From IMG/VR virus record IMGVR_UViG_3300009158_000042: a DNA stretch of 64,000 nt. One strand, written 5' to 3'. Position numbers and translations under genes: made by a program. The notes below the pieces were generated by a model. That model did not search any database and was not told where the DNA came from. It saw nothing but the letters and a program-made list of their open reading frames with translations. How positions within the stretch are numbered: position 1 is the stretch's first letter; every line of letters starts with the position of its first letter. Below are positions 2,732 to 61,337 of the stretch, piece after piece. The DNA is from an uncultured virus (IMG/VR IMGVR_UViG_3300009158_000042). Taxonomy: Duplodnaviria; Heunggongvirae; Uroviricota; Caudoviricetes.

Positions 2732-3982
2732 ATGGTCCCCCCAAAGAAAAAACCAGCAGCAGCTCCAAATCTTGGTGAAAAATTAAGAAATTTGAAGAAT
2801 ACGGCCGAAACAGCCAAGGCCACTGTAGACGGTGAAAAAAACTCAAAAAAAACACTCAATGACATCGCGCAGATGCTTGCTCGTAAAGGTATCGACCCAT
2901 CCGAAGTTGGCTCAATCAAAAAAGTTTCGCTTTACCAGTCGGTAACAAAGAACCCAGATACTGGCGAAGCAATAGTTCACGACCTTCAAGCCATCCAGTT
3001 CAGCCCTTCGTGGGAGACCGGACCAGCTTGGCCTGTTATAGAACAAGGGCCTCAAATACAAATACAAAAGGTAAAGACAAAAACCGGCAAGCCCAAAGCA
3101 TGGGAGACCGCAGTTATCGTACCTGATATACAAATAGGTTTTTACCGTAAATCGCTCGATTCTTTTGAATTAGAGCCAATTCATGACGAAAAAGCCATAG
3201 CAGTTGCTCTTGAAGTAATAAAGAACATGAACCCTGACCAAGTGGTTCTCGTAGGAGACAACCTCGACTTTGCGGAATTCGGCAAGTTTCTTACCGCCGC
3301 ACCATTTAAACAGATGGTTCAAGCCTCAATTGACCGAGCAACCATGCTTTGTGCACAATTGCGCGAAGCAGCGCCTACTGCCAAAATCACATGGATTGCC
3401 GGAAACCACGAAGCAAGATTGGCGCGATACATCCAAACCAACGCAGAAGCAGCTTTTGGCATCACCCGAGGTAAAGCAGATAAATTTAGAGAGACCTGGC
3501 CTGTCCTTTCTGTGCCATTTCTTTGCAGAATGGATGAATTCGGCGTCGAATATCTTCCCGGTTACCCAGAATCAGCTCACTACATCAACTCAAACCTGAT
3601 GATTGTTCATGGAGACAAGGTTGTTTCAAACAACTCAACCACCAAGAAGTATCTGGACAATGAGCGTATATCAGTTATTTATGGACATATCCACAGAAAT
3701 GAGTACGCCTACAGAACTCGCCGTACAGACAAGGGTCCACGAACAATCATGGCCGCAAGTCCTGGATGTCTCTGCAGAGTAGACGGCGCTGTTCCATCCA
3801 CGAAATCAGGTATGGACGAATTTGGTAGACCACTCCTCCAAGGAGCCGAGAACTGGCAACAAGGACTAGGAATAGTTACTTACCAGCCTTACGGAGTAGG
3901 CGAAGAGTGGTTCAACTACGAACCAATGTGGATTTACAACGGCCGAGGCATCCTTCGCGGAGTGGAGTACGTTGCCCAATGA
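2732..3982 (+). CDS. Calcineurin-like metallophosphoesterase
   Basis: Motifs PDIQ, GDNLD, GNHE, VHGD, GHIH. Confidence 0.85.
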   Translation: MVPPKKKPAAAPNLGEKLRNLKNTAETAKATVDGEKNSKKTLNDIAQMLARKGIDPSEVGSIKKVSLYQSVTKNPDTGEAIVHDLQAIQFSPSWETGPAWPVIEQGPQIQIQKVKTKTGKPKAWETAVIVPDIQIGFYRKSLDSFELEPIHDEKAIAVALEVIKNMNPDQVVLVGDNLDFAEFGKFLTAAPFKQMVQASIDRATMLCAQLREAAPTAKITWIAGNHEARLARYIQTNAEAAFGITRGKADKFRETWPVLSVPFLCRMDEFGVEYLPGYPESAHYINSNLMIVHGDKVVSNNSTTKKYLDNERISVIYGHIHRNEYAYRTRRTDKGPRTIMAASPGCLCRVDGAVPSTKSGMDEFGRPLLQGAENWQQGLGIVTYQPYGVGEEWFNYEPMWIYNGRGILRGVEYVAQ

Positions 3983-4212
3983 GCGGATACGACTTTGGCG
4001 AGAACATGCCAAACCTCAGAGAAGACCTAGAATCCTTAAGAGACAAGGGTCTCATCGATATTGTTGGGATAAATGACGAGGGAGAGTGGCTTTACAACCT
4101 TTCCCCCACATCAAAACAACTTGTTGAAGAACTTCGCCATGAAACCGATGACATATGGGGTACTATCGCATTACTCATGGAAAACATGATGGAGGAAGAG
4201 CGTGACCTATGA
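3979..4212 (+). CDS. Hypothetical protein
   Basis: ATG overlaps upstream TGA; resembles ORF 44834-45028 (GLxDI...E/DGEWxY). Confidence 0.55.
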   Translation: MSGYDFGENMPNLREDLESLRDKGLIDIVGINDEGEWLYNLSPTSKQLVEELRHETDDIWGTIALLMENMMEEERDL

Positions 4213-4844
4213 CAACAATAATTGGCATACAGGGTGATGGCTTTTGTATAGCAACAACTGATTCTCGCATCTCAGAGCTTGAGGGCGGGTCTAATTTGAT
4301 TTCGCAATTTGTCAGTCTAAAAGAGACGAATACGAAAATAGCCTTAAATGGTCGCTACTTGTTGGGCGCGGCAGGGGATTTGCGCGCCATAAACATACTG
4401 CATCACGCTTTCCAGCCTCCGCCGGCACCGCCAACACTTAAAGGCAAGAAGCTCGACCACTTCGTTACAGTTAAATTTATCCCAGCTTTAAGAGAAGTAT
4501 TCGAGTCTTCCGGATACGCAATGCCTGATAAAGATGAAAAGACTCACATGGCGGAGCATGCCTCCACTGTATTCATGGCCATAAACGGCACTATCTATAT
4601 CATTGATGGAGATTACTCCTGGATATCTGACTCCTCTGGCTTGTTTGCCATAGGGAGCGGAGCCCAATACGCACTCGGTTCTCTCTATACACAGATGCCA
4701 AAAGGCAAACTAACCCTGCCAATGGCAAAGAAAATAGCAATGCGCGCAATCAATGTGGCCGCAAAGTTTGACCCATATACGGGAGCGCCGTACCACGCCT
4801 TCGTACAGGGAGCCGAAAAACCCCCTGCACCTAAGTCTCAATAG
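4209..4844 (+). CDS. Ntn-hydrolase, proteasome beta-subunit/HslV-like peptidase
   Basis: N-terminal MTTII nucleophile Thr, DSR, K at conserved position, AIGSG motif, D-x-Y-T-G near C-terminus. Confidence 0.8.
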   Translation: MTTIIGIQGDGFCIATTDSRISELEGGSNLISQFVSLKETNTKIALNGRYLLGAAGDLRAINILHHAFQPPPAPPTLKGKKLDHFVTVKFIPALREVFESSGYAMPDKDEKTHMAEHASTVFMAINGTIYIIDGDYSWISDSSGLFAIGSGAQYALGSLYTQMPKGKLTLPMAKKIAMRAINVAAKFDPYTGAPYHAFVQGAEKPPAPKSQ

Positions 4845-21954: not shown

Positions 21955-22323
21955 TTGGTTTCTCCTGCCAGCCTTGTAGGTGGGTGCTGACTCGCATACC
22001 GTACCACTCAAGGTACAGACCTACACGCCCACTTATCTATTACATTTTTATCTCGCCCCCCCGTCCCTCGCCATGTGTTCGCAAGAAAGCCCCGACCTAG
22101 TTCGTTATCAACGGGGCTCATTCCGAAACGAGAGAACAAGAGCGCACTTGGGGGTTGAGATAGAAAAGTTGAGTTCGGGGTTGCGTAACTTATCTATTTG
22201 GAATAATCAAAAAACCGTAACGCTCGCACAACCGTAATAGATAAGTCAGGTCACCTTGGTAATAGATAAGTCAAAGCCCCTGTCAGCATGGGGTGGCTGA
22301 CAGGGGCTAAGGCTTGCTAAGTG

Positions 22324-45028: not shown

Positions 45029-45055
45029 TTGTTTATTCCTTTTTATTACTATTAG

Positions 45056-45129
45056 TGGGCCCTCTGGGACTTGAACCCAGGACTGACGGATTATGAGTCC
45101 GGCGCTCTAACCAACTGAGCTAAGGGCCC
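45056..45129 (-). tRNA. tRNA with CAU anticodon, most likely tRNA-Ile2 (lysidine type)
   Basis: GGGCCCT acceptor stem, TAGCTCAGTTGGTTAGAGC D-arm, loop CTCATAA, GGTTCAAGTCC T-arm; body resembles the Ile2 class rather than the initiator. Confidence 0.85.
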
Positions 45130-45143
45130 GTATTTTTTCTTAG

Positions 45144-45216
45144 TGGGCTAGACGGGGATTGAACCCGCGACCGCCATTTTATAAGAATGGTGCTCTTACC
45201 GCTGAGCTACTAACCC
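45144..45216 (-). tRNA. tRNA-Ile (UAU anticodon)
   Basis: GGGTTAG/CTAGCCC acceptor stem, anticodon arm CCATT-CTTATAA-AATGG, GGTTCAATCC T-arm. Confidence 0.85.
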
Positions 45217-48584: not shown

Positions 48585-51500
48585 CTATAATCCCATCGTC
48601 TTTAGTTCTTCTACGGTTAATCCAAGGAACTCTGAAAGCATATCGTAGTGCTCTGCTTTGAGCCTTCTTAGTCCTTCGTTTGCTGGAGCCGTAGCGTAAG
48701 CTATTGCTTCCGCTATGTATTCCGCCCTGTTGGTTGCAGCGTAATCGCTTATTTGCTTAGCTAGTGATGAATCGTATTCTGAAAGCATGTTTACCATTGA
48801 GGAAAGTTCGTCTTCAATTTCGGAACTACTTCTTCCGGCTTTTAGTTCGTCTTTTGCCCACGAGGTGGCGGCTTTTAGTTCTTTATAGATTCCATCTAAA
48901 TCTTCTGATTCACGTTTGAATGCAGCTTTATTTGTCTTTTTAGCCATAGCGTGGATTGCGTGTCCAAGTTCGTGACGTATTACGTACTCTCCGGTAAGGT
49001 TTGTCCCCGGAATATAGTCCTTAAGGACTTTGTCTGGGAATGCTATGAAGCCATAAGACGGTGTGTATACCCCGCCTCCGGCGTACCAGTTAGTTGGCTC
49101 TAGGTCGGATTCAAAAATAAACCCTTGCTTGAGCCCAAAGTCAGTTAGAAGCATTGGTGGTATGTCAAATCTTCCGAGCATGTTTCTCAATGATGGTGAA
49201 TTGCTTAGTGTCAATTCAACTTTTTTCTGAAGTTCTTTTTGTTTATCCCAATTAATTTCTAGTTCTTCAATGAGTTTATTAATTTTTCTAATACTCTTGT
49301 TTGAATTCTTTGTGTGCGGAGAACTTCTCAATATTGATGCAAGCTCTTCAGGGGAAGACGGAACGGCTCTGATTGATAATTCATTTGCAGAATAAGCAAC
49401 ATATTCAGCGTCGCTGCGAGGTTTTGCTCCTGGACGGCCTTTGCGAAGCCTCCTATTTGACCTGCCGCTACTTAATCGCGTGGATTCAGGAGAGGAATCT
49501 CCTGCCTGTTCTCCTCCAGCATTGAGTATGTAATCTTCATCGAATGCGCCAGGGGTACCGCCGTAGTCTATGTCGTATTCAGAAACCGCAGGTATGCCTA
49601 GACGTCTTGATAGCGCTTGAAGTTTTTCTCCTTCGTCTGGGTTTTCTCCGGTGTAATCATCCCTTACTATGATGTAGGCAATATCGTCTAGCGAAATTCC
49701 GCCCTCGCCGGGATGTACCTGTGCTTCGACTGGATAGTCGAAAGTGTCTTTTTCTCCAGCGTTTCTCAACATCATCATGTTTATATCAGGAGAGTTCATT
49801 GCTGACGTTGTTCCCATTAAGCTGAGGGAGTCTGATTCTGTTACGGTTGTTCTGTCTTCATTTCCTGGCTTGAGGACTAATAGGTAGTTGCCGTACTGCT
49901 GACCAGAACCAGCCACTTCTTCAGTTACTCCACCATATGCAGCCATTCCATAGATTGGTCTGAATTCTGGAGCCATATCTGGTGGATATCCAAACAGTGT
50001 TACTTCCGCTTGCTGTCTAGCTTGAGGATTGTAATGTCCATTGCTTCTGCCTGTTTCAAACTGACTAAGAAGTTTTTTGTTTTTTATAAGACCGCTTATT
50101 GCTTCTTTGTCTACAGCAACGACTACGCGATTATAATCCATTGGCCCTGGCTGGAAATAATCTCCACCCATGCCAACGAGTTCTTTTGCGTATTTATCGT
50201 ATTCGCTTACCAAGTCTTCAACGGTACCTCTAACACGCATGTCCGCGGACATTATTATTTTTTTACGTTCATTTTCTAGATACTTAGCGCGTGTTATGTG
50301 TATCCCGGCACGAAGAACCAAGCCTTTGGCAATGGTTTCAGCATCCCATTCCATCATTTGAGGGTCTCTAGATAAAACTATTCCTGTTATTTTGTCAATT
50401 GCTGGACCGATGCGTTCACTGAATGGAGACCTCTCTCTAATACGTGCCCATGGCCCCTTTGAAGTTTCTAGTAGGAATGGGTTAATTTCTTCTCCGTCGA
50501 ATGCTTTTTTAAAACGAGGGTCATCGAGTACACCATCAATTAGTTCACCAATAACAGCACCTATTTTAGGGTCTATAGTTTCGTCCAGAAGCCAAGATAC
50601 TGGTCTTCCTTCTTTTCTTGCGATAGCAATATCTTCGGTTGGTTCCTTCAGTGACCTTGGATAGGCAGCAACAAGGGCTTTGGCGTGTTCGTTACTTACG
50701 TGCTCGGTTAGTCCGGACGAAAGCTTTTTTCCAGCGTTTTTCCCAACCGATTCTCTTTGTCCGTCAAGAACTTCCGGAGTGGCGGAAGCGGCAAAAGCTC
50801 TGCCATCCGGGGATAATGCATCAGAGTGTTGAAGGTTCTGTTCAGGCCATGTATCCCTGTGAAGGCGCATCATTTCTGATGCTATTCCCGTACGTCTGCG
50901 GGTTCTGGCTACGCCAGTCCTTAGGATTTCGCTGTGGTCATCCTCGTTCCACTTTATGGTCGTCATCAGTCCTATCGAATTCTTGGAGTCTTCCATTCGC
51001 TTTAGGGCATCTAAGACGTTTACTTCTTCAATAGGAACTGGCCCTTTTTTATCAGTCATCGGATTGAAACCAAGTTTTGTCCAGCTTTCGGAAAGTTTTT
51101 GTCTAGCGTCATTTACGCTTCCAGTATCATAAGCAGTTATGGTTCCACCAGCATCAAGAACTACCCAGTAGCTAGTTTCGTTTCCATCTTTAGATGTGTG
51201 TTCAATATGTCTTGCTGAAACTATGCCGTAGTAGTTTGCATTCATAACGCTCTCTACTACTTTTTTCTTACCGGACGACATGCGCAGTTCTTGATTTAAT
51301 TCATCAGGCTGCAGTACTTCTGTTCCGGAAATGGAGCGAGGTTTTACCAGTGTTGATAAGTCCACTTTCTTGTTGCCCTGTTTATAGTTTTTAATAGCTC
51401 TAACAATAAGTGCGGGTGTTATCGCATACAGTCTATTCCTGCCTTCATCAAGAGTAACGGAAGAGAATCCAACAAAAGGTCTCTGCATGCCGATTATTTG

Positions 51501-54500
51501 TTTTTCATAACCAGGTCCAAGCTTGTTGGTCCAGTGTTTGTGTTGTTCTCCACCAATAATCCACTGCGTTCCACGCATGGCGTACTGCCATCTTTGCATC
51601 ATTACACTGTCATGTACTTTTAAGTCTTTGCCTCTGTTCTCGAAATCCCAATCTCTCGAAAGATTTTCTGCTATGTGTTTAGGGATTATTCGATGCGCGT
51701 ATCTACCAAAATACCCCCCGGCCAATTCTTCTCCAGTCATGAGTGCGCTCAAGAACTGATTGTCCGCTTCCTCGAGGGCCTTGATGACAGACTTTACATC
51801 GACTTGTTCATTCTCAAGTCCTGCAATTCTTTTATGTGCTTCCGATATGAAGTGAGCAACATCCCACCCTCTAGCAGCGAGGTCTATTACTTGGTCTGGA
51901 CTATTCTGACGAAATTCTTGAGATAGGTTACTAGACAACAATCCAAGTGAATTTCTGTTGTAGTTCCCAGCGTGTATTGTCCCATCAGTAGAAGCTGATT
52001 CAATAAACTTTTTTAATTCTTCAATTTGTTTTTCTATTTGATTATTTCTAGCTTTTACATCAGCGACGTTGATATTGTTAAGAGCTTTTGTGTCAGCAGA
52101 AGCAACATTAAAACCGTCAGAACCAACAGTTTTTTTAGGGTTAAGGACTCCGCCATCAAGTTCTGATGAGCCTTGATGTATTAAGAATTTTTCTCCATCT
52201 GAAGCGCCATTACCGAATAGTTCCCAGTATTTATCTCTATCATTTTGTTTGAGTTCTAATATCTCTCGTGTTTCTTTAAGTAGGTCATCGTACTCTTCTG
52301 GAGTTATATCTTCTAGGTCAAGTACGTTTTGTTCAATTCTTATCTTCTTGCTATCATGTTTATATTGCAGCAAGGCTACTTCTTCTTTTAAAAGTCTTGA
52401 CTTTTCATTAATATCGTCTTCAAATTTCTTAATCCAGTTTTTAACAAAAGAATCACGTTCGGGTTCCTTGTCGCTTCCCGGATATCTAGTCCACGACTCA
52501 TGTCTTGCAGTAAACGCATCTTCAGCTCGAGTCACTATGTCTGCTTTTAGTAAGTTTTTTGCTTGAGCTTCCGATGAATGTATGGTCGGAGCATTCATGT
52601 TTTTATCTGAAGCAACCACAACGTCAAAGTCTCCGCCAAGCCAGTCGCCAGTTTTATTATAATGCTCCAAGGCCTGAGTAAATCTTCTCATATAGGAAGA
52701 TTGTTCGTCTAGTTTTTCTTTCTCGTAAGAAGTATTAAATCGGGTATCAGCTTTGTACGGAGTTGGTTTTTCCAATACGTCTGTTTCTCCAGATGAAAGC
52801 TTCTTGGCCTCGATTTGTTTAGCCATTGAGTCTCTATCAACGTCAACTAATTTTGTAGCAAGTGACTCTCCGTCTGCGCTGTATCGTGTTGCTTCATCAA
52901 CTCTGAAAACCATCGCCTGCATCGGTCGGCCTAGTATTACTGTTTCATCTTCTTCTAGACACCCAAAGCCAGTAAATGGAGTAGAAAAAATATCTTTAAT
53001 TGGCACAAAAGCCTTTATGACGTATCCACTTTGGTCATTACCTGGTCTTCTACTGAACGACCTGGCTGTAGCTTCATTGATTGACCAAGACGAAAGTGGC
53101 CTCATACGTACTTCACGTATATCCATATCGCCTATGGCTATTGGTTCTCCAAACGCATTTTCACCAGCAGTAATTCCTCTGTATACAGCAAGATGTGTTA
53201 TCCCTCTGTCTTCGAAATACTGCTGCGTTGCTTCATGAGATGTTTGCAGGAATTCTCCAACAAATTTTCTTTGCATTTCGCTCAGGACTGGAGCACCATC
53301 GAAGTCTTCCATAATCTGTCCTGGGCCAGGGGATGCAACAACTCTGTCCATCCTATATTGATTTCCTCGGTCCCAACCAACAGCACCGTCTACGGAGAAC
53401 AGTTCTCTGGCTACGTTCTGCATTGATAACGCAACGTCGTTGGAGTCGTTTGCTGATATAGCCCATGTATGAACCAATCCTGATATTAACGCCTGCTTCA
53501 GAACCCCTTGCCCTTCTGGGGTATTGGCGTCAAACTCTACAAGACCACGGCTTTTCAACAATTCTTCAGGACTAGGTATTACTTTTTTAATATTTTGTAT
53601 AGTTAGTTCTTTTAATACTTCTAGGTCTTTTGCGTCGTCCGGCGTATTTTTGTCAATTTTGGCGACCATCAATTCAGACAAGTCTTTGTAATCAGTACCT
53701 TTCTTTATTCCGTAGCCTTTTTGCAGTATCTGTTCCCAGTCATCCGGACTATTCATAAGAGAATATGAATCTATTGATATTAAGGTTCCGTCTTTTAGCC
53801 TGTATATGCCCAGGTAGTCATTTTCGGGATTGCCTTCTCTTCTTTGACGTGTTTCCCTATTCCCCCACATGTCAAAGTAATACAACTGAGTTTTTATTGC
53901 AGTTATATGGTCTCCGGACCAGCGGCGCATTTCAGTTGGACCTATGGAGCCTATTGAATAATCATCCATGGTTTTTTCATACATGTCCCACATGCTTGAT
54001 TTATCAAAAAGCTCACCAGCAGTCAGTGATTCAAGTTTAGGAATAAAAGATTCGTTCCATATTTTGAGAACGCGCTGTTCTACACTGAAATCTATTCCCG
54101 AAGCTACCGAGCCTTTTTTGGGATTGTAAAAAAACTTACTTCCATCGCGCACTCCTTCGAGTGTTCTGTTAAGGATGAGTGATACGTCTCTAAAATTCTC
54201 GTCATCAGCAAAACCAACTCCGCTTCCAGGCATTGAAGTCTGAAACATTTTTACAAAATCTTGAGGAGTAAAATCCATAGATTCTGCTATTTTTTTAGAA
54301 ATCTCTCTTTTAATTTTTGGAGCAGCAAGACTAGAATCAATATCGTATGTTCCAGGAATAGAAACCGCATCGTCAATAAACATCTGCAAGACGTCTTTTT
54401 CGTCAGCAGGTTTTGTTGGCGAGTAAGGCTTACGAGTTGTCGGTATTGGAACAAACTTGGCAATCTGTGCTTTTTTCCACTGCGTATCTCTTGATTGAGG

Positions 54501-57500
54501 AATAGAAGTTTCCGTTATTCTAGAACGGCGCAAACCTTCTATTTCCGAAAGAGCACTTTCTAGTCTTCCGCGACGTTCGTCTCTTACTCCAGGGGAACGC
54601 CCAGATGAAAGAATCCGACCAGCCCTGTCGCCATCACGCCATGGCTGATAGGTGTCGTTTCCGCCAAGCAAGGTTGTTACAGCTTTCTTCAAGGAAGGAC
54701 TAATCATTTCATTTTGTATTTTTTCGTCTGGATGCAGTACGGCGACAATGCCCTCAGCCATGGTTTCTGCCATGTTGACGTTTCCGTATGAAGTGAGCAA
54801 ACGAGGAACGTCTGGAGTTTCAGAAAACGGAACATCGTTTTCAAACATTGTTATTCTGTCTTGGTCATATGTAAATTTATTAAATTCAGAAGCAACAGCA
54901 AGTGCACGAGCATAGTTTGTGTTGCCCTTGTCTTTGCTGCCGTATCTTTGACGTGTATGAATTGTTGTCTTTGGTCCGCCCTCAGAGTCAGCTATGGCCT
55001 TGAAGTGCAGCCAGTGACCCCATTCGTGAAGCAGCGTTCCTGCAAGGGAGTTTTCTATTGACTTCTGTCCTTTTACTGGGGACTGACCATTCCATCGAAG
55101 AGTGCTTTTGGTTACTGACGGTATTGAGTCATCCAATGCTTCAAGAAACACCTCTTTGTTGAGATAGACGGTGTCCATGTTTGGACTCATTCTTCCTCTT
55201 GCCCTAACCGGCTTACCGTCGTTGCGTTGCTTTGCAATCGCTGCAAATTTCTCGCGCACTTCTGGTATTGCTTCATAGGCTGCTATGCCTTCTGGGTCCA
55301 TGAAGGAGAAAGAAGGAGCTCCGTGGTTTTCAAAAGCCCACTTCATTTGTGGGTTATCTTCAATGGATTGTGCCAGGAGTTCTTGCATGGCTTTTACGTT
55401 GTCTGGTGAGAAGTCCGGGGTATCCCAAGGGTTTTTTTGATGAAAATCATCATAGTATTTCTGAAATTTTAATCTAGTAGCAGGGTCTACAACATCAGCG
55501 CCAGCGTAGTCGTCGAGCCACATTTGAAAATGTTCTTCACGATTTGAAGGAACCAAAACCTTAGCCATTTGTTCAGAGCTGAGACCTCTTAGCCATGTAT
55601 TTGTAGTCTTTCTTATCTCGCCGCCAAGCACGCTCTTGTCGCCGTACTTGTAATCCTTGGCTCTGTGTTCTCTTAGAAGTTCGCGCTCGTTGCGACCAAT
55701 TTCTATTATTGGTCTTTGGGGGGAATCTGGTCTAATTTGTATAGACGGACGTTCCTGCCCTGAAGCAAGTGAGGGTCTGCTGCTCTTTCCCAAAATATCG
55801 TGCGCAAGAGCTAATTCAATATCTTCTTCGTTGGCTTCATAAATTGGCTTGCTTCCAGAAGACAGTCGTCCACTAGTAGATGCTGTATCAAGCTTCTTAA
55901 TAACTGAATTAAAATCACCAGCATATATACGCGTTTCGGAGTCAGATACGCCTTCAATATCGAATACGGTTCTTGGTCGATTACGGTAGCCCATTGTTTC
56001 GTTCATATTTAGGTCGGACTCGTCAAGTCTGCCAACCCTGAGCATTCGTTCGGCGGAGTACATCATGTAATGAAGATGCTTAACGACCATTTTTTCTTGA
56101 GGCGTTAGAGGTGAGTCTGGGTGGTCCGCAAGGGACATCATGGCAAGGTCGTTTGCCCATTCTCCATGGCGGTCAAAAGCTCTACCGGTTCCGAGATGTC
56201 CGAATAGGTCATGGGTGTCTTGAAGTGCCTTGCCATAGAGTCCCATATTGAATTTATGCGGGTCAGTTATTCCACCTATGTAGCCACGAAGATATGTATC
56301 CGTGCTGTGGCTGATTCTTGAACCTGGAAGAAAAAGCTCCTCGTCACCCATTAGTTCGCCCGCACGGCGCGTAAGTTCCCTAACAAACTTGCTATGTTTT
56401 TTCCACGCTTCAAGATACGGTTCCGGCAATGTATCTTGAGTTAATGCTGGCAAACCAATACTGTCGCTCCTGATGACAAATCCTTTTGGAGCCAACATTT
56501 CCAACAGGGGGAATCTTTCCCTCGCCTCGTCGTTTTCAAATTCTAAAGTAGAAGCGTCGTTTTTGTATATTTTTCTTGCAATAATGTTTCCGTCGGAATC
56601 TTTCCATACGGAACCATTGAAAACAACCGTATCTTTCATTGCTTCATCAAGTATTGAAATAACGTCATCACGCTTAGGCAACTCGACGGTACGCCAGTCT
56701 CGTTTGTCCGGTATCTGTTCTGCCAATTGAGGTATCGGGTCAGCGGAAACAAACGGAATTCCGTCTGAAGAAATATCAATCGATATTGATTCAAGTAGCT
56801 GTTTTCCGGTTTCGGAAAACGCATTGTCCACTTCAACGTCAAGTAGTGTTTTCCCAGCAATTTCTTTGGTCAAGCCGGGAATAGCATCTTCAATAGAATA
56901 TTTCTGTTGTTTTGTTAGTTCTTTTCCTGTCGTTTCTTCTATTTTTTTAATTATTCTCTCGGCAACTTTTTTACCCGTTAAAGACTCTCTAGTTAGTCCT
57001 ATGTCGGCAGCTTCTTGCTGGGTTACTTCTGTGGGTTCATTAAATGCTTCAACTACATTTGCGCCAGAAGAGAGTCTTGTGCTTTCCCCTTCGTTGCGAT
57101 TTGAGTATATTTTTTCATCAGAAAATCTTTCGTCTTTCTTTATCTCGTCTATAGCCCTATACATAGCATCAAGAAGAGACATTCCTTCTGCTTTGTATAT
57201 TTCTCGCAAGCGGGCCATCTCTTCCGATTTTTGACGACTCAATTCTGCGTCAAAATCCATAAGAACATAAGACAGTCCGCTACCGTCTGGATTATGTTCA
57301 AGTTTGAATGCTCTGTTTTTAAGCTTGTTTGATTCTTCGAGGCCTTCTAAGACTTTTTTTACTTTATTAACAGCCTTTGTCTGGCCTTCAGTACCCTTTC
57401 CTATTTTTCCAATCAATGCGTCTAGGGAGTTATATGCAAGTTCGTCGTCGTATACTTCTATTACAGCTTTTTTGGTTTTCTCGCCGTTTTTGTAAACTGG

Positions 57501-60500
57501 GCTATACAGGTACCCATATCGTTTTATGTGCTCTAGCTTTAGTTCTTCTTTATAGGCTTCATCTTCTTTGAAACGTTTTCTTCTGACATTTAGTATTTCA
57601 AGTGCTTTTGCCCAAGTATCAACATCTGGTCCGAATGCTTCATTTAGTGCTCTAATTTGTGCTTCTTTGTCTATTTGTCCAAAACCATCTTCGGCAGGCT
57701 CAAGTCTGTTGTATCGCTTGTATTTTTCGTAAAGTTCCCAATACTTGAATTTCTCCTGCTCAGGGTTGGCAAATTCGAGTGTTTGGTCGAAACTGTCATC
57801 ATGATTTCCACCTCTGGCTACGGTAAAACGAGTTGATTCTCTGCCAGAAGAAAGTCTTGTGCTTCCCTCTTCTTTCTGGGCTGCAACAAAAGACTCTTTG
57901 TCTGATTCAAATTTTTTTACATCGGCGTCAAACTTTTCGCGCTCAAGTCTTAGTTTTTCATCGCGGCGCTTTCTGCTAAGTACAGAAGTGTCCCAGTTGT
58001 TTTCTATAGCACCATCAATTATCTTTTGCATTACCTGACTGGTTGCGAAGGCATCAGCGTCTGCGTTGTGATGTCCGTCGCCAAGTTCCACGCCGAGGTA
58101 TTCGGTAATGGCGGCAAGGCTGCTGGATGGTTTGGTTGTCCCGTCTCTACTACTTACGATATGTGGGCCATCTGGGCTATCTTCGCTCCATACCGGAAGG
58201 GTAAGAGAACTTATTTCGCGAGTATCTAAATAACCGCGTGGTGTCCAATCGATACCGCTTTCACGTAAAGCATCATCAAGAACGTTCTTGTCGAAAGTTG
58301 CGTTCTGAACGCCGATGATTGCGTCTGGGCCAATAAACTCAGCAACCTGTCTATGCGCTTCAGCCATGGGCATTTGCGTGGCAAGCCATTCATTGGTAAT
58401 CGGATTACCGTCTGCGTCTTTAAGATTTGCTAAAGACCATTCTCCTAGTGGTTCTTCTGGGTTCATAAACAGATTTAATCTGCCTATTTCTTCCCCATTT
58501 TTCATGCGAACTAGGCCAATTTGTGTTGGTTTTCCGTTGGTTGTGGCTTTACCAAACTCGTCAAAATTCAGGCCGGTTGTCTCATAGTCGAGAAATACAA
58601 TTTCGGCATCGTTGTATTTCTTCTTGAACTCTTCCCATGAATTAGAGTCGCCAAAGTATGAATCTGCTTCACCAAGGAAAGCTCCAAGCGTTGGTTCGCG
58701 TGGATATCGTGGAGCCTTGCCGCTAGATAGGCGGTCTCCCATCTGTTCCTCAAGCTGGTTAAATGCTTGAGAATCGTCAACTTCAGGAGCCCGTGAGGTT
58801 TTAACTGACAGAACCCTGGCAAGTTCTTCCTTGAGCACATCTCTCTTCCAAACATCTTTATCTTCTTCGCTCTTGCCACTAGGACCACGGTATTCAAATA
58901 TAACAGGGAGTTTTTCGGACTTGACCAGAACTCTTAGCCATGCTTCATATGGCGTAGTTGATTTATCTGGGATTATTTCTTCTTTAGACAACCCCTTATC
59001 CCCGAAGTTTTTGTCAAACCACACATCTGTCATTGCTGGGTTAAACATCTCAACATCGTCAGTTTTAAATACTCCGCCCCTAATGTTAGGAACTACCTCT
59101 ATGCCATACTCTCGCATTAGTTCATCACGTGATTGCGCCATATCAATCAGGAGACTCACATTGCTTTCGTTATTCTCGTTGTAGTCCTTGCTAAGTTCTC
59201 CCAACTCTTTTCTAAACTCTTTTGGTGTAGCAATTATTGCTTGAACTTCTTCAGGCTTGAATCTTCCAAGAACTAATGCTTCTTTGTAACTTGCTGATAT
59301 GCCATTGTCGGAACTAGCCTCAAATGCTCCGGATGGTGTTGGGTAAGTGTCGCCAGTCTTGTAGTCATAAAGTATGCCAAGTGGACTAAAACTACTAAGA
59401 AACACTCCATCTTCACCCAGTGAACTGAGTTGAAGAGGCGCATTGTCTTTCATTGACATATCAACTGTGTCTGCATCAAAAACCCTAGTGCGCTCTGCAA
59501 CTTCTGGTCGTAGCACAAAATGTGAATCGCCGTACTTTTGTGTTCTGTTCTGCGAAGCCTCTAGTGCTGCTCCTGCAGGACCTTCGTACATAAGTTTAAT
59601 GTCGTCTCCGTATATTTTTTTAAACTTTTCTTCTCGTGCTAATGCTGTTTTTGAAGTAGTAACATAGCCCGATGATGGTCTAAGTTCTCTTACTTCTGGA
59701 GGGTCTTCCACCCCTTCTTCAAACGGTAAACCTAATAGATTGCCTTCAACCTTTCGTCTGGCACTGGTAGTAATAGCATCGCCTATTAGGTTCATAGACT
59801 CAATATCAGCTGCTTCTCTTTCTTCTTTGTCATGTTGAGTGAGTATGGTGCGATTGCCCTTAATAAACGAGGCAATGCTTCTTGTCCTTACGAGCACCCG
59901 TGTGTCGATAGATTTACCATACGCTTCAGACGCCTTCCTCATGTCTGCATTCAACTGTTCTGGGGTGGCTGTTTTTAGATAAGTTTTAAACTCGTCAATT
60001 TTTGCAACCATTTCAGTATCGCCCCTAGCGATATGTATCTGTCTTGATATTTCTAATGCTACGCTCGGAGGAATAGGGTCTCCTTTTGCCCATACTCCAG
60101 ACTCACGAAGTCTTGCTTGTATGGGGAAAAACGCTGCCTCGGCATCCCTGCCGGTCATCTCCGAAGTAAAAAACTTTCCTTCTGCTACTACTTCGTTTAT
60201 GTAATCAATAGCCTCTTGCGGAAGAATTGTATCTTTTTTAAAGTAATAGTCAATTTGACGCTTGGCGGACTCTGCTGTTTCTTTTATTCTTGTATCGAGT
60301 TTTTCTTTGCTTACTTTTTCTTCAAAGTTCGTGCCGTAACCGAGTCGTTCTTTCAAGGCTCTTAGTTTCCCAAATATTTCCTGCGTATAAGCTGCGGATA
60401 TATCGGCATTATTTATTTCGGTACCACTAGAAAGTTTTTTGGTTACTTCTGGGTCGTAGCCCCATTCAAGCCAAGAGTCGCCGGCTGTATAAATATCCTT

Positions 60501-61337
60501 AGCCTTGACTCGCTTCTTTATGATTTGATATTCGCCACGCAGTGCTCCATCGCCGTGCATAACTGCGTACTCTCGAATTGGGGTAACCCAGTCACCGGGG
60601 GTTATCTTCATGTCGTCTGGTGGAAGATTCTTTAGTCTCTCTATTTCGTCTCGAACACCCTGAGACCAATCGCTAGGTTCGATACTTCTGCTGGTTCCTT
60701 CTGGAAGTTTGCCACGCGCCATATATCTGGCGAGTTGTTTTTCTAGTTTTTCTATCTTTTTACTGTTTGAAAGAGGCACCGCACGATAAATAGTCACCTC
60801 GGCATTTGGCTTGCCTTTGTATTGCTTAATCAGGCTGGCGGCTATTGGGTCAAGCTGGTCATCCCCGACACCATAAAAACGTATTGCATCGGCAGAATAG
60901 ACGTCCTCTGGATAAACTCCACCATCTGCCAACATGTCATGTAGGGGAGCGCCTGCGCCTCTTTCTGGAGCTCCATGCTGGCCTCTGTAGTCCTCGTTAG
61001 CGCCCGAAGACATTCTTCTGGCTGTCTCAGTGCCTCTTGTGGGCGAATCTATGCCAATAAAACGTGGATTAGTTGAGCCTTCGTCTACCCAGCCGTCATT
61101 GTCGGGGTCAAAGTTGCTGAGGGTGGGTTTTCTGTAGCCACGAACTCCGCCCGTCGGTGCATCAATGTCCATCCCGCCACGGCGGCGTCTTCCTTCGCCA
61201 ATGCTTGGCCTATCCACTAGTCGGCTACCGACTAATCGGGCGAGTCTATTTCCAAGCGCTTTCTGCTCTACTGAGGCAGGGCGCGCTCTACGGGATTCCT
61301 CTATGGGAATAAGGAACTCATTATCATCGACAGACAT
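48585..61337 (-). CDS. Giant (4250 aa) polyvalent multi-domain protein: DEDDh exonuclease, ADP-ribosyltransferase-like, two DUF3626-like, GNAT-like and two HExxH metallopeptidase modules
   Basis: FLDYETTG...HHNADADA; AVYRG...LSSWS...EEDE; LSQFETG...RPIYG...EAQVH; RRRTGIAS; HEWGH; HELGH; modules separated by repeated xx[LM]SSG linkers. Confidence 0.85.
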   Translation of the reverse strand: MSVDDNEFLIPIEESRRARPASVEQKALGNRLARLVGSRLVDRPSIGEGRRRRGGMDIDAPTGGVRGYRKPTLSNFDPDNDGWVDEGSTNPRFIGIDSPTRGTETARRMSSGANEDYRGQHGAPERGAGAPLHDMLADGGVYPEDVYSADAIRFYGVGDDQLDPIAASLIKQYKGKPNAEVTIYRAVPLSNSKKIEKLEKQLARYMARGKLPEGTSRSIEPSDWSQGVRDEIERLKNLPPDDMKITPGDWVTPIREYAVMHGDGALRGEYQIIKKRVKAKDIYTAGDSWLEWGYDPEVTKKLSSGTEINNADISAAYTQEIFGKLRALKERLGYGTNFEEKVSKEKLDTRIKETAESAKRQIDYYFKKDTILPQEAIDYINEVVAEGKFFTSEMTGRDAEAAFFPIQARLRESGVWAKGDPIPPSVALEISRQIHIARGDTEMVAKIDEFKTYLKTATPEQLNADMRKASEAYGKSIDTRVLVRTRSIASFIKGNRTILTQHDKEEREAADIESMNLIGDAITTSARRKVEGNLLGLPFEEGVEDPPEVRELRPSSGYVTTSKTALAREEKFKKIYGDDIKLMYEGPAGAALEASQNRTQKYGDSHFVLRPEVAERTRVFDADTVDMSMKDNAPLQLSSLGEDGVFLSSFSPLGILYDYKTGDTYPTPSGAFEASSDNGISASYKEALVLGRFKPEEVQAIIATPKEFRKELGELSKDYNENNESNVSLLIDMAQSRDELMREYGIEVVPNIRGGVFKTDDVEMFNPAMTDVWFDKNFGDKGLSKEEIIPDKSTTPYEAWLRVLVKSEKLPVIFEYRGPSGKSEEDKDVWKRDVLKEELARVLSVKTSRAPEVDDSQAFNQLEEQMGDRLSSGKAPRYPREPTLGAFLGEADSYFGDSNSWEEFKKKYNDAEIVFLDYETTGLNFDEFGKATTNGKPTQIGLVRMKNGEEIGRLNLFMNPEEPLGEWSLANLKDADGNPITNEWLATQMPMAEAHRQVAEFIGPDAIIGVQNATFDKNVLDDALRESGIDWTPRGYLDTREISSLTLPVWSEDSPDGPHIVSSRDGTTKPSSSLAAITEYLGVELGDGHHNADADAFATSQVMQKIIDGAIENNWDTSVLSRKRRDEKLRLEREKFDADVKKFESDKESFVAAQKEEGSTRLSSGRESTRFTVARGGNHDDSFDQTLEFANPEQEKFKYWELYEKYKRYNRLEPAEDGFGQIDKEAQIRALNEAFGPDVDTWAKALEILNVRRKRFKEDEAYKEELKLEHIKRYGYLYSPVYKNGEKTKKAVIEVYDDELAYNSLDALIGKIGKGTEGQTKAVNKVKKVLEGLEESNKLKNRAFKLEHNPDGSGLSYVLMDFDAELSRQKSEEMARLREIYKAEGMSLLDAMYRAIDEIKKDERFSDEKIYSNRNEGESTRLSSGANVVEAFNEPTEVTQQEAADIGLTRESLTGKKVAERIIKKIEETTGKELTKQQKYSIEDAIPGLTKEIAGKTLLDVEVDNAFSETGKQLLESISIDISSDGIPFVSADPIPQLAEQIPDKRDWRTVELPKRDDVISILDEAMKDTVVFNGSVWKDSDGNIIARKIYKNDASTLEFENDEARERFPLLEMLAPKGFVIRSDSIGLPALTQDTLPEPYLEAWKKHSKFVRELTRRAGELMGDEELFLPGSRISHSTDTYLRGYIGGITDPHKFNMGLYGKALQDTHDLFGHLGTGRAFDRHGEWANDLAMMSLADHPDSPLTPQEKMVVKHLHYMMYSAERMLRVGRLDESDLNMNETMGYRNRPRTVFDIEGVSDSETRIYAGDFNSVIKKLDTASTSGRLSSGSKPIYEANEEDIELALAHDILGKSSRPSLASGQERPSIQIRPDSPQRPIIEIGRNERELLREHRAKDYKYGDKSVLGGEIRKTTNTWLRGLSSEQMAKVLVPSNREEHFQMWLDDYAGADVVDPATRLKFQKYYDDFHQKNPWDTPDFSPDNVKAMQELLAQSIEDNPQMKWAFENHGAPSFSFMDPEGIAAYEAIPEVREKFAAIAKQRNDGKPVRARGRMSPNMDTVYLNKEVFLEALDDSIPSVTKSTLRWNGQSPVKGQKSIENSLAGTLLHEWGHWLHFKAIADSEGGPKTTIHTRQRYGSKDKGNTNYARALAVASEFNKFTYDQDRITMFENDVPFSETPDVPRLLTSYGNVNMAETMAEGIVAVLHPDEKIQNEMISPSLKKAVTTLLGGNDTYQPWRDGDRAGRILSSGRSPGVRDERRGRLESALSEIEGLRRSRITETSIPQSRDTQWKKAQIAKFVPIPTTRKPYSPTKPADEKDVLQMFIDDAVSIPGTYDIDSSLAAPKIKREISKKIAESMDFTPQDFVKMFQTSMPGSGVGFADDENFRDVSLILNRTLEGVRDGSKFFYNPKKGSVASGIDFSVEQRVLKIWNESFIPKLESLTAGELFDKSSMWDMYEKTMDDYSIGSIGPTEMRRWSGDHITAIKTQLYYFDMWGNRETRQRREGNPENDYLGIYRLKDGTLISIDSYSLMNSPDDWEQILQKGYGIKKGTDYKDLSELMVAKIDKNTPDDAKDLEVLKELTIQNIKKVIPSPEELLKSRGLVEFDANTPEGQGVLKQALISGLVHTWAISANDSNDVALSMQNVARELFSVDGAVGWDRGNQYRMDRVVASPGPGQIMEDFDGAPVLSEMQRKFVGEFLQTSHEATQQYFEDRGITHLAVYRGITAGENAFGEPIAIGDMDIREVRMRPLSSWSINEATARSFSRRPGNDQSGYVIKAFVPIKDIFSTPFTGFGCLEEDETVILGRPMQAMVFRVDEATRYSADGESLATKLVDVDRDSMAKQIEAKKLSSGETDVLEKPTPYKADTRFNTSYEKEKLDEQSSYMRRFTQALEHYNKTGDWLGGDFDVVVASDKNMNAPTIHSSEAQAKNLLKADIVTRAEDAFTARHESWTRYPGSDKEPERDSFVKNWIKKFEDDINEKSRLLKEEVALLQYKHDSKKIRIEQNVLDLEDITPEEYDDLLKETREILELKQNDRDKYWELFGNGASDGEKFLIHQGSSELDGGVLNPKKTVGSDGFNVASADTKALNNINVADVKARNNQIEKQIEELKKFIESASTDGTIHAGNYNRNSLGLLSSNLSQEFRQNSPDQVIDLAARGWDVAHFISEAHKRIAGLENEQVDVKSVIKALEEADNQFLSALMTGEELAGGYFGRYAHRIIPKHIAENLSRDWDFENRGKDLKVHDSVMMQRWQYAMRGTQWIIGGEQHKHWTNKLGPGYEKQIIGMQRPFVGFSSVTLDEGRNRLYAITPALIVRAIKNYKQGNKKVDLSTLVKPRSISGTEVLQPDELNQELRMSSGKKKVVESVMNANYYGIVSARHIEHTSKDGNETSYWVVLDAGGTITAYDTGSVNDARQKLSESWTKLGFNPMTDKKGPVPIEEVNVLDALKRMEDSKNSIGLMTTIKWNEDDHSEILRTGVARTRRRTGIASEMMRLHRDTWPEQNLQHSDALSPDGRAFAASATPEVLDGQRESVGKNAGKKLSSGLTEHVSNEHAKALVAAYPRSLKEPTEDIAIARKEGRPVSWLLDETIDPKIGAVIGELIDGVLDDPRFKKAFDGEEINPFLLETSKGPWARIRERSPFSERIGPAIDKITGIVLSRDPQMMEWDAETIAKGLVLRAGIHITRAKYLENERKKIIMSADMRVRGTVEDLVSEYDKYAKELVGMGGDYFQPGPMDYNRVVVAVDKEAISGLIKNKKLLSQFETGRSNGHYNPQARQQAEVTLFGYPPDMAPEFRPIYGMAAYGGVTEEVAGSGQQYGNYLLVLKPGNEDRTTVTESDSLSLMGTTSAMNSPDINMMMLRNAGEKDTFDYPVEAQVHPGEGGISLDDIAYIIVRDDYTGENPDEGEKLQALSRRLGIPAVSEYDIDYGGTPGAFDEDYILNAGGEQAGDSSPESTRLSSGRSNRRLRKGRPGAKPRSDAEYVAYSANELSIRAVPSSPEELASILRSSPHTKNSNKSIRKINKLIEELEINWDKQKELQKKVELTLSNSPSLRNMLGRFDIPPMLLTDFGLKQGFIFESDLEPTNWYAGGGVYTPSYGFIAFPDKVLKDYIPGTNLTGEYVIRHELGHAIHAMAKKTNKAAFKRESEDLDGIYKELKAATSWAKDELKAGRSSSEIEDELSSMVNMLSEYDSSLAKQISDYAATNRAEYIAEAIAYATAPANEGLRRLKAEHYDMLSEFLGLTVEELKTMGL

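Follow-up and report, generated by a model that had tools for sequence, protein, structure and literature searches.

Polyvalent proteins were defined by Iyer, Burroughs, Anand, de Souza, and Aravind in 2017 (PMC5512222), who predicted that their domains are released by embedded peptidases, with zincins as the favored candidates, drew an analogy to the polyproteins of RNA viruses, and predicted delivery together with the DNA. The protein considered here, P0001, is the 4250-amino-acid (aa) product of an uninterrupted open reading frame (ORF) of 4250 codons (48585..61337, minus strand) in a 64,000-nucleotide stretch of DNA from an uncultured tailed virus (IMG/VR record IMGVR_UViG_3300009158_000042). 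This stretch, termed the window, comprises positions 30875-94874 of the 158,714-bp virus record, and coordinates refer to it unless a genome or locus is named. Like polyvalent proteins, P0001 and its companion giants join unrelated enzymes in one polypeptide (nuclease, zincin, ADP-ribosyltransferase [ART]/GNAT-type, helicase, and ArdC-N; PMC5512222). P0001 is punctuated by a short recurring peptide, [LM]SSG, which divides it into 13 segments; in this respect it is unlike the proteins of the 2017 survey, the consulted sections of which name no cleavage site or linker motif (PMC5512222).

Both polyvalent proteins and the motif-directed cutting of phage head proteins are thus already known. In T4, the protease gp21 cuts after (L/I)xE and removes capsid-targeting peptides. 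Herpesvirus assemblin cuts at (V/L/I)-X-A↓S, with hydrophobic, any, and small residues before the cut, a pattern that L-S-S, F-A-S, and V-S-G of the present motifs recall. The prohead protease of SPN3US, gp245, acts on both head and ejection proteins; nine of these are cut, at 14 sites in all, after AXE (PMC10052503). The present system resembles those of SPN3US and T4 in that a short motif occurs in several head-associated proteins of one phage and the substrates, here presumed to be cut, include ejected proteins. It differs in that the SPN3US and T4 proteases are of the T4 gp21/phiKZ type and cut after Glu, whereas the candidate here is of the S78 type; that those proteases act on numerous individual gene products, each bearing one to a few sites, whereas here a site stands at every module border; and that tail proteins are not known substrates of such proteases, whereas here the motif is present in a tape measure–like protein.

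Like HK97 gp4-type proteases, the candidate matches the S78 family above cut-off, has a conserved His and Ser, and is encoded between the portal and capsid genes. Unlike them, it is fused to approximately 3000 aa of ArdC, zincin, and helicase cargo, and its substrate range would exceed capsid and scaffold. Assemblin-like peptidases are described as "always at the C termini" of polyvalent proteins in the sections consulted (PMC5512222), whereas the S78 domain is N-terminal in the 120 listed proteins of the family described here. The arrangement also recalls the polyproteins of positive-strand RNA viruses, in which units are split by a repeated short site and modules are exchangeable, although cutting here is presumed, the genome is that of a tailed phage with double-stranded DNA (dsDNA), the released pieces would be carried in the virion rather than form replication machinery, and the protease fold is unrelated. 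In their great size the giants are like N4 virion RNA polymerase (vRNAP) and P1 Dar/DdrB, head proteins that are ejected and serve to protect or express the incoming DNA; N4 vRNAP enters the head without processing and P1 DdrB undergoes a single cut, and neither is described with repeated sites (PMC5512222). A search of the literature, supplements aside, found no description of such a linker arrangement. What is new is the regular punctuation, the lineage-specific forms of the motif, and a reach that includes the tape measure–like protein.

Linkers and Module Borders of P0001

By script count, [LM]SSG occurs 11 times in P0001, compared with 0.18 occurrences expected from the protein's own composition, and once as an LASG variant. 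The tripeptide SSG occurs 12 times and is preceded by L or M in 11 instances (the exception is PSSG at residue 555), and K or R stands before the L or M in 10 of the 11 [LM]SSG copies. All 12 linkers listed in the original prediction were recovered on the minus strand. From the N terminus, these are RRMSSG (61002-61019, residue 107), KKLSSG (60423-60440, residue 300), DRLSSG (58719-58736, residue 868), TRLSSG (57843-57860, residue 1160), a second TRLSSG (57063-57080, residue 1420), GRLSSG (55854-55871, residue 1823), the variant PSLASG (55758-55775, residue 1855), RILSSG (54600-54617, residue 2241), KKLSSG (52788-52805, residue 2845), LRMSSG (51270-51287, residue 3351), KKLSSG (50712-50729, residue 3537), and TRLSSG (49464-49481, residue 3953). 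In alignment A1, the LSSG of RILSSG is invariant, and PSLASG aligns with LSSG of the homologues, its L, S, and G being invariant.

The linker codons vary from copy to copy, with Ser encoded by TCT, TCA, TCG, TCC, AGT, and AGC, Leu by CTT, CTA, CTC, CTG, and TTA, and Gly by varying codons as well. Because the codons differ, the conservation is at the level of the peptide and is not that of a DNA repeat, as had been claimed from the sequence at the outset. An origin by chance, composition, or DNA-level repetition, which merits next to no credence, is refuted by the count, by the differing codons, and by retention of the motif in 14 of 21 P0001 homologues and in 116 of the 120 listed homologues of a second giant, introduced below, that carries the S78 domain.

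The 21 homologues (2403-7353 aa) were retrieved by a whole-length search with P0001. In the 14 that contain LSSG, it is present in 7-13 copies each, compared with 0.1-0.4 expected, and P0021 has 9 copies of LASG besides. Five others (P0014, P0015, P0018, P0019, and P0020) contain no LSSG and carry 5-6 copies of [ST]GVSGKM[ST]; P0017, also without LSSG, has approximately seven copies of (GR)SGFASR. Blocks of BLAST similarity between P0001 and its homologues start and end at the linker motifs. Segments that are 70-73% identical to module C of P0001 have GVSGKM at their borders in P0014 and P0015, SGFASR in P0017, and LSSG in P0016. Since the same module is flanked by three different motifs, its sequence has been kept while the flanking linkers were replaced as a set.

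To compare modules, the 22 proteins were cut at their motifs into 232 segments, 203 of which are at least 60 aa long, and these were grouped into single-linkage families by all-against-all BLAST. Among 892 matching pairs, 517 cover at least 80% of both segments. Written as strings of families, the architectures of LSSG proteins include HICALD-BEFNTS (P0001), ..ALBEFNTS (P0002), NPAD-BEMK (P0003), and HGJALD--BEQO (P0004), and those of the other lineages BBB.FCDS (P0017, SGFASR) and.-YAFFC.C (P0014, GVSGKM). Modules have been gained, lost, duplicated, and reordered at the linkers. For 1916 BLAST block ends in 21 proteins (P0022, blocks of more than 90% identity, and blocks shorter than 150 aa were left out), the median distance to the closest linker or terminus is 11 aa, compared with 92 aa for random points; 50% of the ends lie within 10 aa, compared with 7% of random points. 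The comparison of homologues proposed in the original prediction thus came out in its favor, the borders keeping either the motif or its lineage-specific replacement.

Motif Distribution across Giant Proteins and Genomes

The source genome (158,714 bp) has direct terminal repeats and is rated complete. Among its larger ORFs, PHROG and Pfam matches identify sheath, tube, chaperone, portal, large terminase, and an HK97-fold capsid protein, as in a contractile-tailed phage. In a scan of its 193 nonoverlapping ORFs, [KR][LM]SSG was found 18 times, compared with 0.25 expected, and 17 of the 18 sites fall in four ORFs of 1629-4250 aa. Ten of these are in P0001. Three are in a 2645-aa giant (genome 110339-118276, minus strand) that has an HExxH motif at residue 587; three are in the S78 giant (P0023, 3369 aa; genome 120118-130227, minus strand), which also contains QSLSSG and AMSSG; and one is in a 1629-aa tape measure–like protein (genome 149410-154299, L014:13411-18300, plus strand). 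K or R dominates before the motif in all four. The only site elsewhere, EKLSSGL in an 85-aa ORF (21980-22237, plus strand), is probably due to chance, or the ORF may not be a gene. The 2645-aa giant and the tape measure–like protein match no family in Pfam, PHROG, or NCBIfam; the gene of the latter lies after the sheath, tube, and tail chaperone genes, as expected of a tape measure.

Relatives were found in the viral collection through module A, and five complete or near-complete genomes were fetched (G001, G004, G005, G006, and G007). In G001, all 22 LSSG sites (1.6 expected) are in four ORFs, of which the polyvalent homologue accounts for 11, a 2391-aa giant for 5, the S78 giant for 4, and the tape measure–like ORF for 2. 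In the six genomes together, 132 of 159 [LMF][SA]SG sites are in ORFs of at least 1000 aa, compared with approximately 36 expected, as such ORFs hold 21%-24% of residues; the other 27 are at about the level of chance. The motif is therefore almost confined to P0001, the two giants of the head module, and the tape measure–like protein, in answer to the proteome scan that the original prediction had called for.

The S78 giant opens a wider view of the site. It has 224 homologues at E ≤ 0.001, the best 120 of which underlie the family counts given here, and relatives of its N terminus are encoded at no fewer than 566 loci of the viral collection. The 116 listed homologues that contain L[SA]SG carry 3-18 copies each, and the family yields 1110 distinct sites; in nearly all listed homologues, the most frequent tetrapeptide is LSSG, FSSG, or LASG. 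Upstream of the site, D, E, S, G, and T are enriched, and R or K occupies position −1 in 51%-64%. There follow L (80%-94%; F in 3%-15%), S (A in 6%-12%), S, and G, with A, K, or R at +1. Variants track lineage: KLSSG, RLSSG, SLSSG, RGLSSG, RGLASG, or RFSSG mixed with RLSSG. In G009, of the GLSSG lineage, G is at −1 in 10 of 10 sites of the S78 giant and in 4 of 4 sites of the next giant; this is the one genome outside the source lineage in which sharing of a variant within a genome was tested. That different proteins of one genome have the same variant points to a single reader evolving along with its sites. A host protease, acting after delivery or in the producing cell, would account for sites in head and tail proteins alike with no problem of access. 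Nevertheless, near-identical modules with different fixed motifs in sister lineages, and the same variant within a genome, argue for a co-evolving reader encoded by the phage, and a host enzyme is considered very improbable.

Sites avoid folded domains. Only 1 of 221 lies inside a Pfam stretch, compared with 37.9 expected from domain coverage, in a set made up of P0001, P0023, and 13 further S78 giants hand-picked for many sites and diversity; the single exception is within a long helicase envelope. Two AlphaFold2 models agree with this. Model 1 (residues 1410-2260; 13 sequences, mean pLDDT 65) has all four of its sites in coil of pLDDT <50, and these are held by low segments (1-19, 416-483, and 827-851) between two better-predicted bodies. 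In model numbering, the sites are TRLSSG at 11-16, GRLSSG at 414-419 (at the start of low segment 416-483), PSLASG at 446-451, and RILSSG at 832-837. Model 2 (residues 860-1180; 16 sequences, mean pLDDT 86.6, pTM 0.82) is a confidently predicted DEDD exonuclease, and both flanking sites lie in its only two low segments (1-13 and 301-321). These are DRLSSG at 9-14, the G of which (model residue 14) is just outside the low segment, and TRLSSG at 301-306 (pLDDT <50). All six modeled sites are thus in low-confidence coil next to folded domains, and the structure check favored the placement between domains claimed from the sequence.

Flexible coil would also suit a peptide that is never cut. The motif could be a conserved interdomain hinge, a docking peptide (for a chaperone, scaffold, or portal), or a serine modification site in giants that stay intact, which might explain its presence in a tail protein, and N4 vRNAP, ArdC, and TraC1 are given as transferred unprocessed in the part of the survey consulted (PMC5512222). 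However, plain hinges would not keep four exact residues over 1110 sites with variable flanks, nor would the whole set of them give way to a different fixed heptapeptide in a sister lineage. It is hard to see what a docking signal would gain from 11 repeats, one at each border between modules, and the pattern matches that of viral polyproteins and of the motif-directed cutting established for SPN3US (PMC10052503). Uncut giants therefore appear unlikely.

Candidate Proteases and Proposed Processing

In the head module of the source genome, the portal gene is followed in order by those for the S78 giant, a 566-aa acidic protein, and the 2645-aa giant, with the capsid gene at a greater distance. 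The S78 giant directly follows the portal gene and matches Peptidase_S78 at residues 31-175 (34.4 bits, cut-off 21); H69 (VVWGH) and S133 (EWSIGY) are invariant in alignment A3. These are presumably the catalytic residues, as in the family. After the protease come ArdC-N (712-797), MPTase-PolyVal (852-980, E 5.8e-35, with HExxH at 900), and UvrD-type helicases, and the motif copies at 699, 1064, 1096, 2146, and 2818 fall between domains. Peptidase_S78 is present in 117 of the 120 listed giants, and all 13 homologues scanned pass the Pfam cut-off. The first site is at median residue 655, after the protease and a C-terminal extension, and in nine proteins a site is found at residues 182-186, right at the end of the S78 catalytic domain. 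A sequence search of the PDB with the S78 N terminus gave no match at E ≤ 1, and a tblastn search of phages with the first 1000 aa of the giant gave matches to the ArdC domain only, so that the fusion was found in no cultured phage.

The S78 core is nearly the same whether the lineage uses LSSG or GVSGKM, and its invariant columns are dense from 21 to 179 (alignment A3). A switch in protease specificity that parallels the switch in motif is not supported on this ground. The motif types may instead all be forms of a single pattern, hydrophobic-small-small, whose extended flanks are specific to the lineage, as L-S-S, F-S-S, L-A-S, F-A-S, and V-S-G all fit hydrophobic, S/A, S/G.

In the GVSGKM lineage (locus L018), the polyvalent homologue is encoded in the head module, where the genes run terminase, portal, stand-alone S78 protease (770 aa), acidic protein (501 aa), and polyvalent giant. 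The acidic protein is homologous to the 566-aa acidic protein of the source genome. The stand-alone protease (L018:5753-8062, plus strand) has a Cys/Gly-rich stretch, a long Pro/Lys/Glu-rich repeat in which KEPV recurs, and no linker motif. Scans of viral collections for genomes with GVSGKM or SGFASR found only contigs of 27.5 kb and 12 kb, and scans of metagenomes found none; a genome scan for the GLASG lineage (P0133) likewise found nothing. The 566-aa acidic protein (genome 118291-119991, L012:10292-11992, minus strand) is encoded between the two giants of the head module, and by eye its C-terminal ~55 residues resemble the C terminus of the "capsid maturation protease" of Gordonia phage ChisanaKitsune. 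It is probably a scaffold, which in actinophages is fused to the protease.

The following processing scheme is proposed. P0001 would be a cassette polyprotein of approximately 12 autonomous modules strung together by a short conserved peptide, in which a hydrophobic position (L, or more rarely F, M, or V) is followed by S/A, S, and G, usually with K/R before it. This peptide would be a proteolytic processing site common to all giant virion proteins of the phage, that is, P0001, the two giants encoded between the portal and capsid genes, and the tape measure–like protein. Its reader would most likely be the phage's own S78 (HK97-type) capsid-maturation protease at the N terminus of one giant. 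The giants would be co-assembled into the prohead, to which P0001 may be recruited by an N-terminal element in common with the protease giant, and would then be cut at the linkers into pieces of ~20-65 kDa that are delivered with the DNA as enzymes acting on the host. That the linker is a processing site read by the S78 protease, which dissects packaged and ejected cassette proteins, is given a little better than an even chance. What the original prediction proposed, namely a protease site in an array of cassettes, has found support in each of the computational tests that it named, through the restriction of the motif, the conservation of borders, the shuffling of modules, and the placement of sites between folded domains; cutting and entry into the host are put forward here as presumptions. 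A predicted complex of the S78 domain with a 40-residue linker peptide (score 0.00) gave no answer and counts neither way.

Zincin-type metallopeptidases embedded in the giants, acting in cis or in trans and possibly after ejection, are the other phage-encoded candidates. They include MPTase-PolyVal of the S78 giant and the HExxH modules of P0001 (2104 and 4122) and of the 2645-aa giant (587). Such processing is what was predicted for polyvalent proteins, as far as the source was consulted (PMC5512222), and cutting after ejection would explain conserved sites in the tape measure–like protein, which is not a prohead component. Additionally, the GVSGKM proteins have an N-terminal HExxH. In contrast, 16 listed S78 giants with 5-11 sites have no HExxH, and S78 is their only recognizable peptidase, so that cutting in cis cannot be general; the tape measure–like protein has no HExxH; and the zincin modules of P0001 have no Pfam MPTase-PolyVal match and no structural match at E ≤ 0.001. 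Zincins as the readers are regarded as a minority prospect, if one to be taken seriously. A second, unrelated peptidase candidate of the phage is a 211-aa ORF (4209-4844, plus strand) that matches PHROG 1040 "peptidase HslV family" and Pfam Proteasome (E 1.3e-6).

A number of observations weigh against processing by the S78 protease in the prohead. One concerns the tape measure–like protein, in which sites are conserved in 6 of 6 genomes, at approximately residue 36 (KRFSSG in the source genome) and at 570-607, with hydrophobic, membrane-like segments after the first. Tail assembly is normally separate from that of proheads, so that an enzyme acting only inside the prohead should have no access to this protein; the presumed substrates are thus not restricted to the head. 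The near-invariance of the S78 core across lineages with different motifs is a further difficulty, as is the position of the P0001 gene, which lies among replication genes (primase and single-stranded DNA–binding protein) and not in the head module. All P0001-family members except P0014 and P0022 (20 of 22) carry at least one HExxH, which leaves a zincin as a candidate reader. P0022 (5459 aa) shows no repeated motif. Model 1 is shallow and contains five other low-confidence stretches without the motif. Knowledge of the phage comes solely from metagenomes, and the lack of any observed cleavage product fits intact giants as well.

The capsid protein speaks for S78 in having a candidate maturation site of the same general kind, and against it in that this element reads L-S-S-R and not the full LSSG. 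Its gene (genome 104126-105475, L011:10127-11476, minus strand) encodes Q/H-L-[ST]-S-R-E-I-K-S at residues 94-102, conserved in seven genomes. At the L-[ST]-S-R (95-98), a coiled, low-complexity, delta-like N-terminal part ends and the conserved part begins. This element was not found in actinophage homologues, whose genomes are without such giants. A second conserved element, KDV[FY]S[GA], is at 141-146 and reads KDVFSSG in ChisanaKitsune.

Module Content, Neighboring Genes, and Implications

All modules of P0001 are encoded on the minus strand. Module H (61002..61337, residues 1-112) ends in RRMSSG. Its residues 24-101 (61035-61268, minus strand) share 66%-70% identity with positions 535-616 of this genome's S78 giant (L013:10381-10626, minus strand), and this element of ~80 residues includes a DPDNDG-type acidic loop. 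A shorter core is common to the corresponding two proteins of G001, and the element opens 10 of the 22 P0001-family members. Judged by this shared similarity, it is a candidate common docking, packaging, or encapsidation signal. Module I (60423..61001, residues 113-305), ending in KKLSSG, matches PHROG 2579 "ParB C-terminal domain" (E 1.8e-30), and module C occupies 58719..60422 (residues 306-873).

Module A (57843..58718, residues 874-1165) is firmly assigned, from family matches and its modeled fold, as a DEDD (DnaQ/RNase T-like) 3ʹ-5ʹ exonuclease. It contains an RNase_T match at residues 914-1102 (Pfam E 2.4e-11), matches NCBIfam DEDD models, and in Foldseek resembles the DinG exonuclease domain, exonuclease I, and Pol III epsilon (E 3e-9 and weaker). 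It is followed by module L (57063..57842, residues 1166-1425), module D (55854..57062, residues 1426-1828), which is folded in model 1, and a 32-residue spacer (55758..55853) between GRLSSG and PSLASG with pLDDT <50 in that model.

Module B (54600..55757, residues 1861-2246) contains HEWGH at 2104, a zincin-type motif in which H, E, and H are invariant in 13 sequences. It has no Pfam match, and neither zincin-type module of P0001 matches MPTase-PolyVal at Pfam E ≤ 0.1. A Foldseek search with model 1, which covers modules D and B, gave nothing at E ≤ 0.001, the top rows being weak resemblances of zincin type. The C-terminal part of module E (52788..54599, residues 2247-2850) may be an ADP-ribosyltransferase, a lead only: its nearest named clusters in the Atlas are DRAT/ADP-ribosylase (score 0.91), and a PDB sequence search with the ART-like region gave no match at E ≤ 1. 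In the phage collection, tblastn with residues 1426-2850 gave only weak matches to hypothetical proteins of Bacillus phages.

Module F (51270..52787, residues 2851-3356) is followed by module N (50712..51269, residues 3357-3542), which has subthreshold similarity to GNAT (E 0.034). Module T (49464..50711, residues 3543-3958) contains DUF3626 at 3745-3842, above cut-off (E 1.4e-8). The C-terminal module S (48588..49463, residues 3959-4250) has the zincin-type motif HELGH at 4122 and is 31% identical to a C-terminal module of P0017. No family was found in PHROGs, Pfam, or NCBIfam for most modules. P0001 qualifies as a polyvalent protein, having RNase_T and DUF3626 matches above cut-off, a DEDD fold, two HExxH modules, an ART lead, and a place in a complete phage genome. 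The domain labels fared unevenly: the exonuclease was upheld, the ART is a lead, GNAT falls below threshold, and the zincins are named from their HExxH motifs. The statement that recognizable domains sit between linkers proved correct for RNase_T, DUF3626, and the HExxH motifs at 2104 and 4122, each of which is inside a segment.

Elsewhere in the genome, adjacent genes for tRNA-Met (CAT) and tRNA-Ile (TAT) are found at 45055-45216 (minus strand). The tail-fiber genes (L009:7616-14936, genome 7.6-15 kb) include a glycosyltransferase, a tryptophan halogenase–like protein (PHROG 2928, E 1e-102), and a 2OG-Fe(II) oxygenase, an unusual set for a fiber region. At L014:4601-7424 (genome 140.6-143.4 kb), a ParB-like, a PAPS reductase–like, and a second ParB-like protein are encoded in a row, which suggests a DNA-modification module.

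A near-identity DNA search with the P0001 ORF found no match in phage and plasmid collections, and the phage collection yielded no cultured phage that encodes giants of this type. The actinophage myoviruses ChisanaKitsune and Brevibacterium phage Cantare have capsid proteins that are 45%-48% identical over the full length, and they share a related capsid, an S78-type protease, a portal, and a contractile tail with the phage described here. Their loci (L156 and L157, respectively) differ in that an RNA ligase, a VIP2-like ART, and a 969-aa HNH protein or a 1040-aa protein are encoded by separate genes, which lie between those for the portal and the protease. LSSG-punctuated giants were found in neither; there were one and two stray matches, with 38 ChisanaKitsune proteins scanned, and the strict motif was absent from 15 Cantare head and tail proteins scanned. 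The giants look like fused versions of actinophage cargo genes, which may have been joined by cleavable linkers.

A broader arrangement can be envisaged, although its chance is put somewhat below even. In a large uncultured group of ~150-kb myoviruses, all ejected proteins (three internal giants and the tape measure) would be made as polyproteins with one universal site per module border, the form of which would be common to the substrates of a genome, and the linker would serve as a standard connector. The lineage forms of the site are K/R-LSSG, GLSSG, RFSSG, GLASG, GVSGKM, and SGFASR. The sites in the tape measure–like protein hint that head cargo and the ejected core of the tail have one processing system, which is unexpected.

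Processing of polyvalent proteins was predicted in 2017 with no known signal, and a defined site would make that prediction directly testable. If the proposal is correct, the functional units of hundreds of giant phage proteins would be readable from sequence alone. It would also explain their evolution by cassette exchange and establish a polyprotein strategy in dsDNA phages. An enzyme inserted between two linkers would be automatically packaged, released, and delivered, allowing rapid shuffling of anti-host modules.

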